The notes: a model not told the origin generated them from the letters alone. Counted from the stretch's first letter, positions 1 to 58,709 are shown. The stretch is 64,000 bases of DNA from an uncultured Candidatus Saccharibacteria bacterium (GCA_964348695.1 CAYGDI010000001.1:159473-223472); one strand, 5' to 3'. A program made the numbers and translations.

Positions 1-725
1 AGGTAGAGGTATTACCCACTGGTGTTGATGCGCTGCCTCAAGCATCGTCGCAAGAAGTTGAGGTATTTAGAGCTCGATACGGCTTCAGTCAAGATGACAA
101 GATCGTGACGTATGTAGGACGTCTTGGGGCAGAAAAAAACCTGGCAAGTCTGATTCCTATGATCGAGCAAGTTCTCGCTACAGAACCACATGCAAAATTG
201 CTCTATGTTGGTGATTTTGAATACAAAAAAACACTTGAAGAGCTCGCTGCTGCTTCGAGTGCTAAAGATGCTATTGTTTTCACTGGTGCTCTTCCCCGTC
301 ATACGCTGGGGGTTGTATACCAGGCTAGTTCGGTATTTGTTTTTCCCTCACTCACCGATACTCAAGGTCTTGTGCTGCACGAAGCGGCACTGGCTGGGCT
401 GCCGATTGTATTGATCGATGGCGCTGTTACAGAAGTTGTCAAAGACACTGAAAATGGTTTTGTTGTTGATAATAATCCAAATTCAATGGCGGAGAGGGTG
501 GCTTTTTTGCTAAGTGATGAACCAACGCGTAAAGCTTTTGGTCGTCAAAGTCGTCAACTTGCTGGCCAGTTCACGGAAACAAAACAAACTAAAAAGCTCG
601 AACAGCTCTATCAACGAGCACTCAAGCAGCACAGTGCGGATCGTCGCTCGACGATGCAAAAAGTATATCGTCGTATTGTCACTATGCGAGACAAGATATT
701 TGCAAAAATAGATTCTGGACAATAA
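1..725 (+). CDS. glycosyltransferase, GT-B fold (family 1/4-like), C-terminal part; 5' end lies outside the window
   Basis: Frame 3 is open from the window edge. The translation ...KIVTYVGRLGAEKN...VFVFPSLTDTQGLVLHEAALAGLPIV... matches the typical GT1/GT4 donor-binding C-terminal domain. Confidence 0.8.
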   Translation, partial: VEVLPTGVDALPQASSQEVEVFRARYGFSQDDKIVTYVGRLGAEKNLASLIPMIEQVLATEPHAKLLYVGDFEYKKTLEELAAASSAKDAIVFTGALPRHTLGVVYQASSVFVFPSLTDTQGLVLHEAALAGLPIVLIDGAVTEVVKDTENGFVVDNNPNSMAERVAFLLSDEPTRKAFGRQSRQLAGQFTETKQTKKLEQLYQRALKQHSADRRSTMQKVYRRIVTMRDKIFAKIDSGQ

Positions 726-1194
726 AAAAACCCCGAGAAGCGAGTGACATAGCGCCCGGTAGGGCTGTGGTGGTCATGTCGGGTTGACCACTGAATCTTG
801 CGTCCTCCTAGAGCTGCAAGATGCTATGTTTTAGCGACCATTTCTGTGGTTCGCTTCACTCGTTTCTCGGGTTGTGCGCACTTGGCGCAATGCACACAGC
901 TCAGTGCGGTGTTGACTCGTGACTGGGGTGGTATCCCAGTACTCTCGACTTGCACGCTTTGGCAAAGTGGCGCGAGGCCAAAGCGGAGTCAACGCAAGGT
1001 TTACTGTAGCTATCCACGGGCCTCCGTATTGCCCTGGATTTTGGTGGTGGAAGATTGCCCGTTGTTACATCGCTGCGCAGGCTCGTAAAGTACGATCTTT
1101 GTAGCAAGGTCACAACGAGTTTCTCGCAATCGAGAGATCAAATGAACTCTCAACACACACGACAGTGATGTGATTTTTGGTCTCCACTATCGAC
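726..1194 (-). ncRNA. candidate structured ncRNA A (family unknown)
   Basis: GC-rich island with no protein-like ORF. Minus-strand sigma70-like promoter (TTGTTT-17 nt-TATACT at 1201-1229). Nested helices include gttgactc/gagtcaac enclosing two hairpins. The 3' domain is closed by a 16-bp helix (731-746 with 856-871) around three hairpins and is followed by a U7 tract. Confidence 0.45.
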
Positions 1195-1200
1195 AGCTGC

Positions 1201-1229
1201 AGTATACTACACCGATCTAAAAAAAACAA
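1201..1229 (-). promoter_or_regulatory. sigma70-like promoter for candidate ncRNA A
   Basis: Minus strand reads TTGTTT, a 17-nt spacer, then TATACT. The -10 lies inside the palindrome AGTATACT. No good -35 exists for the plus orientation. Confidence 0.4.
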
Positions 1230-1242
1230 GCTTTTTTGACAA

Positions 1243-1771
1243 AAAGAAGACCCCAGAGTCCTCTTAGCAGTGGGTTGTATGTCGCCTCGGTGGATGCGAC
1301 GACTGCTTGAGAGAGCTCTGGGGTTTGTTCCTGCTTACCTCGCGCGTCCCGTGGGGTAAGTTGTGAAACTGGGCTCGCTTCGCAGGTGACAGAAGATTTT
1401 CATCTCCGACTACTCCGCAGAGCAGTATACCTGTGAAGCGAGCGTACACATGTGAAACGACGACGGGAATCATCACATGTGTGTTTTCGGGTAAGCTTCC
1501 AGACTCAACCCGAAACTTGTAAACTTTCCCACCCCGTGACCGCTGCAGAAAACTGCGAGCGCCGTCTTCACCTGGTGTGGTGATTAGTACGAGACTACCC
1601 TTTCGGGATATCACGGAGCGGGTTGGAATCTGTCCTAGCATGTGGTCTTGCGATGCACATCATCCCAAAGGGAGTTCAAACCCAGAACAGATTCAGTGGA
1701 TCCATACCACCAACAGAAACGAGGTCATGATGACCCGCCCATCAACACAATGGAAACCTCCCATTGCATCA
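1243..1771 (-). ncRNA. candidate large structured ncRNA B (family unknown)
   Basis: About 530 nt, GC-rich, and the ORFs it contains are Arg/Ser/Cys-rich nonsense. It has its own promoter (TTGTCA-17-TATACT). Many helices are visible, including a 10-bp hairpin acacatgtga/tcacatgtgt, closing helices gaatctgt/acagattc and gctcgcttc/gaagcgagc, and two GAAA-capped hairpins. It ends in a long branched hairpin (1251-1323) plus a U-rich tract. Confidence 0.5.
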
Positions 1772-1777
1772 GTTGCT

Positions 1778-1806
1778 AGTATACTATCCCAAAATGCTAC
1801 TGACAA
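1778..1806 (-). promoter_or_regulatory. sigma70-like promoter for candidate ncRNA B
   Basis: Minus strand reads TTGTCA (1801-1806), a 17-nt spacer, then TATACT (1778-1783). The -35 is embedded in the nrdB terminator hairpin. Confidence 0.45.
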
Positions 1807-1816
1807 GCAGTAGCAT
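1790..1816 (-). terminator. intrinsic terminator after nrdB
   Basis: Hairpin atgctactg-cttg-cagtagcat followed by UUUU on the minus strand, 20 nt after the nrdB stop. Confidence 0.45.
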
Positions 1817-1835
1817 GATATGAGCTGGTTGGTGT

Positions 1836-2834
1836 TTATTTTTTGCTACTACTGGAGTTTACTTCGTAGCTGGTATTGGTGCTCTCGAAGAAGTTGACGA
1901 GCTCTAGGGTGTCGTTGGCTGCAGCCATCCATTTGGCTGGATTGCTGACTTTGTAGTGTGCGCCAAATCCAAGTTCTTCAAGACGACGGTCGGCCAAGTA
2001 TTTGACATATTGGTTGATGTAATCAGCGTTTAGCCCCAGGATGCCGTGCGGCAGTAGGTCTTTGTTGTAGTCTTCTTCCATTTCTACTCCGTCGAGGATC
2101 ATTTGTTTGATCTCGGCTGCGAATTCTTCGGTCTGTAGGTCTGGGTTTTCTTCTAGTACGGTTAGGATCAAATTGATACCAAATTTTAGGTGTAGACTTT
2201 CGTCGCGGACTACCCAATCGATGAGGCTACCAAAGTTGCGCAGGAGATTTCGTTGTCGGAAGCTGAGAGCTACCATGAATCCGCTATAGAACCACAGGCC
2301 TTCGAGAATGATGTTGTAGGCTACTAGGTTTCGGACAAAATCTTTTTTGCCTTCTGTGCTGGTGATGTCGATTTTTTCCTCAGTCATACGTCGGATGTAT
2401 TTGACTTCAAAATCTTCTTTTTTGGCCATTGAGGGCACGTCTATATGAGCGTCGTAGGCTTGTTCTCGATCGAGGGGAAATGTCTCGAGTACGTATTCGA
2501 ATGCCATACAGTGGTTGGCTTCTTCCCACATTTGCTTAGCGATGTACATGTGAGCTTCGGGTGCGTTGATATAAGGGTAGACACCAAAGGCCAGGGCTTT
2601 GTTGACGATGAGTTCGTTGGGGTTAAAATAACTCATGAGAAACTGCACAGCATGGCGCTCTTCGTCGCTCATTTTGCGCCAGTCGGCAACATCTTGACCT
2701 AGCTGGATTTCGTTTGGAAACCACGTATTGGCAACGGCTTGTTCGTAGAGATCATACGCCCATTGATATCGAATTGGTTTGAGACGCAGACCGTCCTGAA
2801 TGCCTGTACCTAAGATGCCTTTTGATTTGCTCAT
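1836..2834 (-). CDS. nrdB: ribonucleotide reductase class Ia beta subunit
   Basis: 332 aa with di-iron ligand motifs (EEANHCMAFEY, VRDESLHLKF). RBS GGGGAGAAAT lies upstream of the ATG. Adjacent to nrdA. Confidence 0.95.
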   Translation of the reverse strand: MSKSKGILGTGIQDGLRLKPIRYQWAYDLYEQAVANTWFPNEIQLGQDVADWRKMSDEERHAVQFLMSYFNPNELIVNKALAFGVYPYINAPEAHMYIAKQMWEEANHCMAFEYVLETFPLDREQAYDAHIDVPSMAKKEDFEVKYIRRMTEEKIDITSTEGKKDFVRNLVAYNIILEGLWFYSGFMVALSFRQRNLLRNFGSLIDWVVRDESLHLKFGINLILTVLEENPDLQTEEFAAEIKQMILDGVEMEEDYNKDLLPHGILGLNADYINQYVKYLADRRLEELGFGAHYKVSNPAKWMAAANDTLELVNFFESTNTSYEVNSSSSKK

Positions 2835-2855
2835 ATTTCTCCCCTGTTTATTATT

Positions 2856-3026
2856 TTATTGACAACCGTCACAAGCGAGTTCGTCTTGTGGGTCGATCAA
2901 AGACTGCATGTTGATATTGCTCGTACTCTGATTGCTCACACCTTGTGCTTGCATCTCAGCCAATGCTTCCTGGATAGCTTTCATCCGGAGCTCTATTTCT
3001 TCTTGTGTTTCTTGTTGTGGACTCAT
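2856..3026 (-). CDS. 56-aa protein with a C-terminal CxxC tail (MSPQQETQEE...DPQDELACDGCQ); absent from the ORF track
   Basis: ATG at 3026 is preceded by AGGGGGAAAA. The stop is 21 nt before the nrdB RBS. It sits between nrdA and nrdB on the same strand. Confidence 0.55.
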   Translation of the reverse strand: MSPQQETQEEIELRMKAIQEALAEMQAQGVSNQSTSNINMQSLIDPQDELACDGCQ

Positions 3027-3086
3027 TTTTCCCCCTACTTATGTTTGATTGTTTTATTTTTTGAGCTATTCGTCGTGATCCATATC

Positions 3087-5486
3087 TTACCCCCGTGCTC
3101 CGAAGCCAAAGCCGAAGCCTCCAGCTTTTGTTTTTGTTATCTCTTCTGCCTTGTTGACTTTTGTGGTTGCTTGTTCGGCCTGGTGACGTGGTTTGACATG
3201 TAGGTAGTAGGTCGTCTTTAAGCCTTTTTTCCATGCGGTCGAATAGATGTCTACCATATCGTCGATGTCGCGGGTCTCTAGGTACATGTTACGGCTAATT
3301 GCTTGGTCTACCCACTTTTGGGCGCGGCCGGCTACTTCGATAAAGGCCATTGGTGACAGCTGAAAACTGGTTTTGTATACGTCTTTTAAGTGCTGTGGAA
3401 TAGCACGAATCTCTGTGAGATCGCCCTGGTATTGCAGGACTTCGTCTTTGACGTCGTTCCAAATGCCGAGAGCTTTGAGGTCATTGACGAGATTGACATT
3501 GACTTCTAGGAATTTGCCGTTTAGGGTTGAGCGGCTAAATATCTGTGAAAACTGTGGGTCTAGGCCTGGTGTTGTACCAGCAACGTGAGCGATATTAGCC
3601 GTTGGCGCGATAGCCATCAGTGTTGCATTGCGCATGCCTTTTTTGACTTTTCCTCTGAGTTTTTCCCAGTCTAGACGAGTCTTGCGGTTGATATCTACAC
3701 TTACTTTGCGGTCGATACTAGCGAGTTCAACAGTGTCAATTGGCACTAAACCTTTGCTCCATCCGCTGCCTTTGAACATTGGGTATGGTCCACGTTCTTT
3801 AGCGAGGTTAGCTGATTCGTCGATTGCCTGGTAACTGATGAATTCTACTAGTTTGTCGATGAGCTCGTAAGCTTCTTCGGATTCGTAACTATAGCCTAAT
3901 TTCTCTATAACATCTGTAAAGCCCATTACACCTAGTCCGATTGCGCGGTTTTGTTGGTTGGAATGCATTGCCTCTTTGACGGGTGTATTGGTGATATCCA
4001 CCAGGTTGTCGAGTTGACGAACCGCAGAACGGGTACTGGCATCTAGTCTTGTCCAGTCAAAATCTTTTTTCTCTGGTATGTAGTGCGCAGCGAGATTGAC
4101 ACTGACAAGGTTGCAAACCGCGGTATTTTCTTTGTCTTGCGGCAAAGTTATCTCGGTACATAGGTTTGAAAGATGTATTGTACCGGTGTTGTTGTTGAGT
4201 GCGCGGACATTGATAGTGTCTTTCCAGGTGAGCCATGGGTGGCTGGTAGCCTGCAGTACTATGAGGATTTGGCGGAACTGTTCACGGGCTTTTGTTTTTT
4301 CAAATGTACGCATCTCGCCTGCATCTGCTAGTTTGATGTACTCGGCGTAGCGTTTGCTAAAAGCGCTGCCATAGAGTTCACATAGATCAGGTGTGTCAGC
4401 TGGGTCGAACAGATACCAATCTTCGTCGTTGTCGACGCGTCGCATGAATTCATCTGATATCCATGCTGCGGTGTTGGCGGTTCGTACACGTAGGTATGGG
4501 TCGCCAGAGTTTTGTTTGAGATCGAGAAATTGTGGGAAATTGAGGTGCCAATTTTCCATATAAAATGCTAGTGCACCCGCCTTTTTGCCCTTTCGACTGA
4601 CAGCTCGCAGAGCTGCATCAACGACATTCATAAATGGTATTGGGCCAGTTGAGACTGTATTGGTGCTCTTGACTGGGCTGCCTTCGGCGCGGAGTTTGTT
4701 CATGGACAGTCCAATACCGCCGGTGCCTTTTGATATCCACATGACGTCGCTGACAGTTTTTGCGATTGAGTCCATTTCATCCTGGGTCTCCATGACGAAA
4801 CAGTTGGAAAGTTGCGGAAAAGCCCCGCCAGCATTGACTCGAGTTGATCCACCAGGTATGTAGTCAAACCTACTCATGTGCTCGTAAAATTTGAGTGCTG
4901 CTTCGGTTGGGTTCTTTTCGTTAAAACTAAGTCCCATCGCTATACGCATCATGGTAAACTGAGGTGTTTCGATAGGTTCTCCATCTTGTTTTCTTAGGGC
5001 GTAGCGGTTTTTACTAGTGATAACACCTAGGTATTTCATCAGTTGATCACGACTTGGATCGATTGCGGCCGCAAGTTTTTTGACATCAAAAAGCTTGCTG
5101 TCTCCCATGCGACGATCGAGGAGTTTGTCTTTGACTCCTTCCCTAATATACGCAGGGAACTTTTTCTGGTGTAGTTTGATGAGCTCTTCATCGTTCTCGT
5201 AATCCCCGAGAACATTTTTGTAGATGGTTTTTAATAATAATCTTGCGGCAATAATATCAAAGTCTGGATCATCTTTGACATTTTGGAGAGCTGCATGTAT
5301 GACGGCTTCGTCTAGTTGTGTCGTTGTGATGCCATCAAACAATGTCAAACTCACCTCTGTTGCAACTTGGATAACTTTTGATATCTGATCATCAAGTCCA
5401 CGCGATGCTCTCTCTAGCGCGCGGTTGATCTTGTCTGCGTTGTACGGCTCTTTTGCACCGTCAATTTTTGTGACTGAAATGTCCAC
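3087..5486 (-). CDS. nrdA: ribonucleotide reductase class Ia alpha subunit with N-terminal ATP-cone
   Basis: 799 aa. ATP-cone (VTKIDGAKEPYNADKINRALERA) and catalytic core motifs (NLCTEI, PTANIA). GTG start follows GGAGGG plus 9 nt. The C-terminal 60 aa contain no cysteine. Confidence 0.95.
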   Translation of the reverse strand: MDISVTKIDGAKEPYNADKINRALERASRGLDDQISKVIQVATEVSLTLFDGITTTQLDEAVIHAALQNVKDDPDFDIIAARLLLKTIYKNVLGDYENDEELIKLHQKKFPAYIREGVKDKLLDRRMGDSKLFDVKKLAAAIDPSRDQLMKYLGVITSKNRYALRKQDGEPIETPQFTMMRIAMGLSFNEKNPTEAALKFYEHMSRFDYIPGGSTRVNAGGAFPQLSNCFVMETQDEMDSIAKTVSDVMWISKGTGGIGLSMNKLRAEGSPVKSTNTVSTGPIPFMNVVDAALRAVSRKGKKAGALAFYMENWHLNFPQFLDLKQNSGDPYLRVRTANTAAWISDEFMRRVDNDEDWYLFDPADTPDLCELYGSAFSKRYAEYIKLADAGEMRTFEKTKAREQFRQILIVLQATSHPWLTWKDTINVRALNNNTGTIHLSNLCTEITLPQDKENTAVCNLVSVNLAAHYIPEKKDFDWTRLDASTRSAVRQLDNLVDITNTPVKEAMHSNQQNRAIGLGVMGFTDVIEKLGYSYESEEAYELIDKLVEFISYQAIDESANLAKERGPYPMFKGSGWSKGLVPIDTVELASIDRKVSVDINRKTRLDWEKLRGKVKKGMRNATLMAIAPTANIAHVAGTTPGLDPQFSQIFSRSTLNGKFLEVNVNLVNDLKALGIWNDVKDEVLQYQGDLTEIRAIPQHLKDVYKTSFQLSPMAFIEVAGRAQKWVDQAISRNMYLETRDIDDMVDIYSTAWKKGLKTTYYLHVKPRHQAEQATTKVNKAEEITKTKAGGFGFGFGARG

Positions 5487-5618
5487 TTTCCTAGACCCTC
5501 CATTTATTTATATGATTTTTGTATTGGACCACACCTCCCAAGCAGACATAAGGTCTCGCAAGCCCCTTCTGCTCTACGGCCGAAAACACCCTCTTACCCT
5601 CAGTGCTTCCGGGCTAAA

Positions 5619-5674
5619 TATACTATATCTAGCGCTTATGTTCCATAGTAATACCCTACATATGCTGTTGTCAA
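5619..5674 (-). promoter_or_regulatory. nrdA promoter (TTGACA-18-TACTAT) with two candidate NrdR-box-like palindromes
   Basis: ATACTATATCTAGCGC (5619-5634) matches about 12/16 of the remembered NrdR box acaCwAtATaTwGtgt. A weaker CTACATATG (5656-5664) lies about 32 bp away, inside the promoter spacer. Confidence 0.3.
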
Positions 5675-5727
5675 CGGTTTTATGCTGCAGAATGTACAAC
5701 GAATTTACCTCTGAAAAGTGGGTAAAA

Positions 5728-5994
5728 CTAAGCTTTTTTATTCAGCGCAGCGTCTATTCCAGGCCGGTCAAATCCCAAAATTATTTCGCCGTTTACGTCA
5801 CTAGTGGGTACTCCACGGAAATTGTCACGTCCACCGATTTTATCCATCAGTTCGTGGTATGCTGCTTCGTCTTTTTCTATATCTTTTGTGACGAAACGGA
5901 CGCCTTTTTTCTCCAAATATTGCTCCAAACTATGACAAAACCCGCACCAACTAGTGCTATATATAGTAACTTGCGGTGTTCCCTCCTCGCTCAT
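5728..5994 (-). CDS. glutaredoxin-family thiol-disulfide protein (CGFC active site)
   Basis: 88 aa starting at the internal ATG 5994: VTIYSTSWCGFCHSLEQYL...GVPTSDVNGEIILGF. Thioredoxin fold pattern. Lies upstream of nrdA. Confidence 0.8.
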   Translation of the reverse strand: MSEEGTPQVTIYSTSWCGFCHSLEQYLEKKGVRFVTKDIEKDEAAYHELMDKIGGRDNFRGVPTSDVNGEIILGFDRPGIDAALNKKA

Positions 5995-6052
5995 GTATAT
6001 ATTGTAACATTCTAGCTTTGATTTTGGATATTTGTTATACTGCATAGAAGTA

Positions 6053-29883: not shown

Positions 29884-29958
29884 TGGCTGGGATGGAGGGA
29901 TTCGAACCCCCGAATGCCAGGACCAAAACCTGGTGCCTTACCACTTGGCCACATCCCA
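29884..29958 (-). tRNA. tRNA-Gln (anticodon UUG), CCA encoded
   Basis: Hand-folded cloverleaf: acceptor tgggatg/catccca, D stem gcc/ggc, anticodon stem ccagg/cctgg with loop uuUUGgu, T arm ggggg-ttcgaat-ccctc, discriminator G, then CCA. Total 75 nt. Confidence 0.9.
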
Positions 29959-58425: not shown

Positions 58426-58575
58426 ATAAAATGACTCCTGTTTAGTTGTATCGACCTTGTCCTTAAAACCATAAACTCCGACTCAGACCCGCAAAATTAC
58501 CAGGGCAATGTAACTTCGCTACTCGGGGAACGAGAGTCTTCGCTAGAGTTTATGGTTTAAGGTATATCTCGACTT
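58426..58575 (-). promoter_or_regulatory. ribosomal protein L10 leader-like structure
   Basis: A long helix ccttaaaccataaactc / gagtttatggttttaagg (58461-58562) encloses a branched region immediately upstream of rplJ. Confidence 0.5.
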
Positions 58576-58582
58576 TTTACAA

Positions 58583-58618
58583 ATAAAAAAGTCTTTGATT
58601 CTCGCATTACCAAAGACT
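58583..58618 (-). terminator. intrinsic terminator after tmk
   Basis: Hairpin agtctttgg-taatgcgagaat-ccaaagact followed by U6 on the minus strand. Confidence 0.6.
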
Positions 58619-58709
58619 AATAACAATCTTGTTTTTACTCCTCGGTGGCTTGATTAAGTCTGACGACCGCCACTGTCTTCGGGTAATGTTCATGTACTAT
58701 GCTAACAAA

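Follow-up and report, generated by a model that had tools for sequence, protein, structure and literature searches.

Few bacterial non-coding RNAs exceed ~400 nt while possessing many conserved helices, and to our knowledge those examined to date (ribosomal RNAs, RNase P, group I/II introns, OLE, ROOL, and GOLLD) are all catalysts or large assemblies. OLE, ROOL, GOLLD, and the raiA motif RNA are stand-alone genes of ~400 to 600 nt with many helices kept by covariation, are lineage-restricted and enriched in GC relative to the genome, and have functions that are not obvious from context; some of them are linked to phage, mobile-element, or membrane-protein genes. Other described systems, such as 6S-1/6S-2, CsrB/CsrC, and the Qrr sRNAs, consist of related RNA genes that each possess a promoter and a terminator, and protein-sequestering RNAs present a purine-rich GGA or GGAGG at a hairpin apex. 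These features recur at a locus in a 64,000-nt stretch of DNA from an uncultured Candidatus Saccharibacteria bacterium (GCA_964348695.1 CAYGDI010000001.1:159473-223472, hereafter the window), where positions 1240 to 1771 of the minus strand probably constitute a stand-alone gene for a highly structured non-coding RNA of ~530 nt, termed unit A, belonging to a genus-restricted family absent from Rfam. In contrast to OLE, ROOL, GOLLD, and the raiA motif RNA, unit A has no sequence or structure match in Rfam 15 and is found in a single genus of Saccharibacteria, and it and its neighbor, unit B, occur as tandem relatives and in split or fused versions, without linkage to phage, mobile-element, or membrane-protein genes. 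Compared with the 6S, CsrB, and Qrr RNAs, units A and B are much larger, are organized into branched domains in place of a rod or a plain series of hairpins, and each have one or two copies of GGAGG, not many. Searches of the full-text literature turned up no account of this RNA.

The source genome comprises 1.0 Mb in 69 contigs, of which the window represents C1:159473-223472. On the minus strand, the window encodes an NrdH-like gene, nrdA, a small ORF, and nrdB, the last of these convergent, together with the RNA units, with a glycosyltransferase ORF (Table 1). The 56-aa ORF between nrdA and nrdB ends C-terminally in ...DELACDGCQ. NrdB of the window, compared with loci L027–L096, is 81 to 86% identical to NrdB of Microbacteriaceae and other Actinomycetota (Clavibacter, Leifsonia, Rhodoglobus, and Salinibacterium) and 83 to 88% identical to NrdB of other Saccharibacteria, so that the actinobacterial proteins are about as near. 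Actinobacteria are the usual hosts of Saccharibacteria, and this similar closeness suggests gene transfer of class I RNR between Saccharibacteria and their actinobacterial hosts.

Between the glycosyltransferase and nrdB lie 1110 nt (726–1835) without a credible ORF, bearing out the remark of a first-pass annotation, made from the sequence of the window, that about 1.1 kb of consecutive DNA is non-coding. That annotation had also noted a higher GC content than in the flanking genes, and indeed positions 1243 to 1771 have a GC fraction of 0.524, as compared to 0.464 for nrdB, 0.451 for the glycosyltransferase, and 0.452 for the genome. The longest ORFs of the unit A stretch (125 and 78 aa) lack a Pfam match, consistent with the earlier view of its frames as nonsense, and a Pfam search of five ORFs from the gap returned zero matches. 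When 3680 ORF translations from 82 loci (80 containing nrdB, plus L005 and L006) were compared to the gap by tblastn, only the relatives' own non-coding frames matched; the search for a protein homolog that the first-pass annotation had proposed thus yielded nothing significant in either tblastn or Pfam. Across the whole 64-kb window, the only Rfam matches at gathering score were an L10 leader (58575–58700, 71.5 bits) and one tRNA (29887–29958).

Table 1 Features of the nrd operon, the unit A and unit B RNAs, and the adjoining glycosyltransferase. Positions are those of the window.
Feature	Position	Strand	Description or basis
NrdH-like gene		−	
nrdA	3087-5486	−	
56-aa ORF	2856-3026	−	
nrdB	1836-2834	−	
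nrdB terminator	1794..1816	−	hairpin AUGCUACUG / CAGUAGCAU, then UUUU; 9 bp, -14 kcal/mol, z -4.0
Unit A predicted promoter	1778..1806	−	-35 TTGTCA (1806..1801), 17-nt spacer, -10 TATACT (1783..1778)
Unit A RNA (~530-538 nt)	1240..1771	−	start ~1771 inferred from -10 box; 3' end at the U tract
P1, 5' hairpin	1743..1772	−	invariant apex (A/G)UGGGAGG, with Shine-Dalgarno-like GGAGG; fold z -3.3
P2 hairpin, GGGUCA-UCA-UGACCU	1722..1736	−	two compensatory positions
P3, variable	1695-1711	−	MFE fold
P4, long arm with inner hairpins	1626-1694	−	contains the gaatctgt/acagattc helix; inverted repeat I9 and MFE
P5 domain	1528..1622	−	13-bp helix CCCGCUCCGUGAU / GUCACGGGGUGGG around three hairpins; covariation
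Junction J	1514-1527	−	AAAGUUUACAAGUU; motif (CAC)YUU..ACAA..UUC, recurs in all units
P6 hairpin	1486-1514	−	8 pairs, 4 changed on both sides
M1 hairpin	1446..1482	−	ACACAUGUGA ... UCACAUGUGU; inverted repeat I8
Second helix-junction-hairpin module	1334..1443	−	inverted repeat I2 and MFE
M2	1373-1443	−	GCUCGCUUCACAGGU / ACCUGCGAAGCGAGC, around two hairpins; inverted repeat I2
Junction J'	1361-1372	−	CCAGUUUCACAA; MFE
P6' hairpin	1334-1360	−	MFE
Unit A branched terminator (~75 nt)	hairpin 1251-1323; U tract 1240-1250	−	U tract UCUUCUUUUUG; inverted repeat I3; -37 kcal/mol, z -5.6
Unit B predicted promoter	1201..1229	−	TTGTTT (1229..1224), 17-nt spacer, TATACT (1206..1201); read from sequence
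Unit B RNA (~475-477 nt), tandem relative	724..1200	−	z -6.2
Unit B 3' domain, five-way junction	732-871	−	closed by CCCGAGAAACGAGUGA / UCACUCGCUUCUCGGG; model R2, 97.8 bits
Glycosyltransferase ORF	ends 725	+	convergent with nrdB and the RNA units

A scan of positions 600 to 2000 returned the unit A promoter as the sole promoter-like site, with a consensus score of 10/12. Its −35 box sits within the loop of the nrdB terminator hairpin, forming a compact terminator–promoter overlap, as the first-pass annotation had described for this TTGTCA-17-TATACT promoter. A hairpin with TTGnnA in its loop was recognized by eye also in G001, G002, G005, and G006, genomes of the same genus, and the −35 box lies inside the loop at the equivalent sites of loci L006, L112, L114, and L111 as well. 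TTGTCA and the −10 box are retained in G001 and G008 (TACAAT), and in every relative a −35-like TTGnnA occurs in or adjoining the preceding terminator hairpin, ~17 nt before a TAnnnT box. Unit B is preceded by a further predicted promoter, the design of which is shared by the promoter between the two units of G005 (TTGTTT-17-TATTAT). At the 3' end of unit A, the stability of the predicted fold upheld the earlier assignment of a long branched hairpin followed by a U-rich tract. Units A and B thus each carry their own promoter and terminator signals and are probably transcribed independently of nrdB.

The 551-nt stretch containing unit A folds at −227 kcal/mol as compared to −175 kcal/mol for shuffled sequences (z −7.1, with none of 100 shuffles as good), in agreement with the many nested helices that had been drawn by eye. 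Helices named individually in the first-pass annotation were recovered as inverted repeats, namely acacatgtga/tcacatgtgt (I8, a perfect 10 bp), gaatctgt/acagattc (I9, 11 nt), and gctcgcttc/gaagcgagc (I2, 15 nt). In the 5' half, P1 exhibited compensatory changes at 4 of its 13 pairs among five RNAs while its apex was invariant, and P2 covaried in the three sequences compared (GGUCA/UGACC in the window, GGGCA/UGCCC in G008, and CGGCA/UGCCG in G001). The region of P3 and P4 (1626..1711) is ~84% identical in G008 and partly deleted in G001. P5 encloses the inner hairpins CCC-GAAA-GGG, UCACC/GGUGA, and CUCGCAG/CUGCAGCG; 100% of its alignment cells are paired, and compensatory changes were observed both in the P5 helix and in the inner hairpins. 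In G001, the position of M1 is occupied by a hairpin of another sequence (CACCAUGC ... GCAUGGUUG). The succession M2-J'-P6' appears to resemble the P5-J-P6 module, by motif order only. As only one relative, G001, is alignable with the 3' half of unit A (1240–1482, comprising M1, M2, J', P6', and the terminator), and that only partially, the structure predicted for this half is based mainly on thermodynamics. Two GAAA tetraloops had been put forward as a hallmark of a large tertiary-folded RNA; both are present (CCC-GAAA-GGG at 1598–1607 and GAU-GAAA-AUC at 1392–1407) but they are not conserved features, and the former is not a conserved GNRA loop since the relatives have CCAAAAA or AAAA in its place.

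Unit A is followed in tandem by a second, related RNA gene, which corrects the earlier reading of a single locus. The closing stem of the unit B 3' domain consists of 15 to 16 bp whose arms lie >100 nt apart, and seven U residues (U7, 724–731) follow directly, such that this long-range helix appears to act as the intrinsic terminator of unit B. Neither BLAST nor nhmmer found a link between A and B. The two share an order of elements, namely a purine-rich P1, a C-rich/G-rich P5 helix (CYCGCUCC ... GGRGYGGG), a junction of the form (CAC)YUU..ACAA..UUC, and a hairpin; the junction reads GUYAACAAUC in both units of G005 and in the A-type unit of G003 and is shortened in unit B of the window. Model R3, which was built from the A-type P5-J-P6 module only, matched modules in G006 (24 bits), G007 (21 bits), the B-type unit of G005 (17 bits), and the second module of G008 (21 bits), at E values of 6e-5 to 8e-3 in a 92-kb search. 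Shared element order and R3 matches suggest a module-level relationship between A and B, one weaker than the homology within each type.

A BLAST search of 61 related genomes gave partial matches only in the same-genus genomes G001 and G008. The region following nrdB was taken from every same-genus genome with nrdB, and G007 was added after its match to model R2, which represents the B-type 3' domain. All eight same-genus genomes with a contiguous locus contained a related RNA in a gap of 470 to 1150 nt extending from the nrd operon to the glycosyltransferase, the latter being 67 to 72% identical to that of the window. The content of this gap differs among genomes. Tandem units are present in the genome of the window (A, 538 nt; B, 477 nt) and in G005 (577 and 476 nt); G003 has one A-type unit, located after an extra ORF, and no B; G002, G006, and G007 have one B-type unit each (404, 498, and 376 nt, respectively) and no A; and G001 and G008 have a single RNA (614 or 569 nt) in which an A-type 5' half is fused to a B-type 3' domain. 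The extra ORF of G003 (locus L113, G003:C1:104300-107500, positions 179–688) encodes 169 aa (MQNILGDFETKIANIN...), lies between nrdB and the RNA gene, has its own terminator, and is absent from other genomes of the genus. In G007 (locus L121, G007:C54:3500-6500, positions 1187–1900), an NrdH-like gene is immediately followed by the RNA and then the glycosyltransferase, with nrdA and nrdB missing from the locus; neither was found elsewhere in this 89%-complete assembly. G007 therefore indicates that the RNA is kept independently of nrdAB.

Searches at greater phylogenetic distance gave a consistent picture. Model R1 (the 5' 174 nt of A) matched only the genus among 301 family genomes, apart from weak hits in G309 and G252 that were rejected as false, being situated inside ORFs of ~360 aa. 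Model R2 was likewise limited to the genus among 401 family genomes from 95 genera, and model R3 detected its own genome only among 401 order-level genomes from 256 genera. No homolog was identified by nhmmer in 80 nrdB loci of other Saccharibacteria and Actinobacteria, in which the gaps following nrdB are at most 340 nt, and exact-pattern scans of JGI metagenome contigs, a set from which near relatives may be missing, gave 0 matches. In its own 1.0-Mb genome, an nhmmer search with all 10 units found only this locus, establishing a single copy, and R1, R2, and R3 each matched one locus per genome. The family appears, as far as these searches see, to be confined to one genus of Candidatus Saccharibacteria, a distribution from which it follows that it could be young, fast-evolving, and possibly dispensable.

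Covariation was counted per domain because a full-length MAFFT alignment of all units misaligned P1 and the variable arms; the alignments comprised 4 to 5 related sequences (three for P2). For the P5-J-P6 core of unit A (window 1484–1627; four sequences), 97% of cells were paired and 10 of 34 pairs had changed on both sides; none of 500 shuffles scored as high and slid controls reached at most 2. In the B-type 3' domain (window 732–871; five sequences), 17 of 41 pairs were compensatory, a count again attained by none of 500 shuffles, and slid controls for the two domains together did not exceed 4. Relatedness alone can beat the shuffle control, an explanation against which the slid controls argue. 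The first-pass annotation had made its reading depend on conservation and covariation in homologous loci, and both are present there, with compensatory changes in the helices. Base pairs are thus maintained by compensatory substitutions, which is the mark of a structured non-coding RNA. The covarying helices of unit A include 14 G-U cells that would be A-C mismatches on the other strand, placing the RNA on the minus strand, that of nrdB, and in most units z-scores were stronger for the sense than for the antisense sequence. All 10 units were more stable than dinucleotide shuffles (z −5 to −12.6). Insertions and deletions of 1 nt occur within conserved blocks, so that no reading frame persists. 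What the locus contains is a structured non-coding element that is conserved, syntenic, and present in a single copy and that bears signals for a promoter and a terminator, and its helices are under selection; that it is a real structured RNA gene we regard as highly probable.

Several known identities were examined and rejected. A scan of window positions 1 to 6000 with Rfam 15 gave no match at E ≤ 1, and among seven related loci (28 kb) only two chance-level matches were obtained (E 0.41 and 0.81). The cmscan comparison suggested in the first-pass annotation accordingly produced no family match at the locus, with OLE, ROOL, GOLLD, raiA, HEARO, and group I/II introns among the families covered. 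Bacterial type A RNase P RNA is of similar size and also multi-helix, and an GGGAAAGU-like stretch in unit A is reminiscent of its P4/CR-I region, but the GGGAAAG stretch of unit A is not conserved in the A-type units of G003 and G005 or in B-type units, and the resemblance of 'GGGAAAGUUUAC' to RNase P that had been mentioned earlier likewise proved not to be a conserved feature. The genuine rnpB is located at C5:45408-45744 (RF00010, 253 bits), and the unit A locus has no match to RNase P RNA at E ≤ 10. Similarly, the genuine ssrA is located at C5:48515-48914 (RF00023, 109 bits), with no tmRNA match at the locus. Unit A, which the first-pass annotation had been unable to match to either, is thus neither of these RNAs, both genes being on contig C5. 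A cis-regulatory leader or riboswitch was rejected because the minus strand carries no gene beyond the RNAs for them to regulate, the next gene being convergent. A dispersed repeat or mobile element was rejected because all family members match only this one locus in the window's own genome.

An improbable alternative to a stand-alone gene is that the RNA represents an extended 3' untranslated tail belonging to the nrdH-nrdA-nrdB operon, produced by read-through of a weak nrdB terminator and acting in cis, for example as a block to 3' exonucleases or as a bidirectional terminator that would also serve the convergent glycosyltransferase gene. Such a tail would fit the invariable position of the RNA, on the same strand and directly after the nrd operon, as well as the location of the region between convergent genes and the character of the nrdB terminator, which has only four U residues and was not called by the terminator scan. 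It would not account for the well-spaced promoter found conserved ahead of each unit, the internal unit B among them, nor for the ORF, terminator, and promoter that separate nrdB from the RNA in G003, nor for the retention of the RNA in G007 where nrdA and nrdB are absent from the locus. Furthermore, a covarying multi-helix structure of 0.5 to 1.1 kb far exceeds what a terminator or stabilizer needs. Slightly less probable again is a structured intergenic element of mosaic, selfish, or fast-turnover character that would be acquired, lost, duplicated, and recombined among relatives and have little or no cellular function. The variation in unit content among close species (A, B, A plus B, or an A/B fusion) and the confinement to one genus are what would be expected of such an element; the single copy per genome, the one fixed syntenic site in eight of eight genomes, and the lack of any transposase, integrase, or terminal repeats found nearby are not, and conserved promoters together with compensatory changes indicate selection on the RNA itself.

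The invariant GGAGG of P1 raises the question of whether unit A might instead be an mRNA translated into very small proteins, one or several, with the P1 apex as ribosome-binding site, which we judge very unlikely. GGAGG is found 16 to 17 nt into all five A-type RNAs, AGGAG or GAGGU occurs near the same position in G002 and in the B-type unit of G005, and a GUG lies 8 nt downstream of GGAGG in unit A of the window, G001, and G008. However, the frames opened by these GUG codons are 7, 28, and 12 codons long and unrelated, a start codon at this distance is lacking in the A-type units of G003 and G005, part of the GGAGG is engaged in P1 pairing, and Pfam matches none of the ORFs of the gap. Least probable of all is a region of decayed protein-coding genes. 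In its favor, the position of the gap is occupied in other Saccharibacteria by genes of ~200 and ~420 aa immediately downstream of nrdB, and NrdB proteins align weakly to window positions 1058 to 1279 (26% over 81 aa, E ~0.06–0.14, judged to be chance because such values are not significant for 3680 queries). Against it, conservation tracks base pairing rather than frames, 1-nt indels interrupt the conserved blocks, the promoter and the terminator are both conserved, the region is Pfam-negative, and none of the post-nrdB genes of other genera matches the gap in tblastn.

A stand-alone structured RNA gene accordingly remains the preferred reading of unit A, and from its elements a mode of action can be proposed. 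A sigma-70-type promoter nested in the nrdB terminator would start the unit A RNA, and the RNA's own branched intrinsic terminator would end it. The family is modular, each member opening with a purine-rich P1 (whose apex in the A type is GGGAGG), continuing with one or two modules, and closing with a terminal domain that also appears to serve as terminator; in each module, a multi-hairpin domain closed by a helix is followed by an A-rich junction and then by a hairpin. Unit A seems too large and too branched to be a mere terminator. Its RNA would presumably act in trans as a folded RNA, for which a protein-binding scaffold or ribonucleoprotein component seems the likeliest role, offered here as a tentative suggestion; a role as antisense RNA, leader, or mRNA is unlikely. 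Each genome retains at least one unit while others are lost, split, or fused, a pattern suggesting that it is the modules that act as functional units. Contacts would most likely be made by the conserved single-stranded GGAGG apex and by the strands of the junctions. A purine-rich arm similar to the A-type GGAGG is present also in B-type P1, and, judged from sequence and predicted structure, this similarity and the invariant, exposed GGAGG of the A type make contact with a protein or with the 30S subunit plausible; the 3' end of 16S rRNA was not found in the assembly.

That a ~1-Mb genome with little spare DNA keeps 1.1 kb of structured RNA at a site fixed throughout the genus, in G007 even without nrdAB, argues for selection. 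The natural variants (A only, B only, A plus B, and the A/B fusion) separate the domains of the RNA and could guide part-by-part experiments. More speculatively, units A and B may represent a hitherto undescribed class of large modular RNA in episymbiotic Saccharibacteria, in which modules serve as building blocks distributed over one or two transcripts, tandem RNAs or fused halves form one ribonucleoprotein or RNA-only particle, and many such families replace protein functions lost from ~1-Mb genomes; we hold this to be possible, though doubtful. The locus also gives a hint that lineage-specific large RNAs may be unusually abundant in Saccharibacteria; if so, they would constitute an overlooked part of the biology of these uncultured episymbionts.
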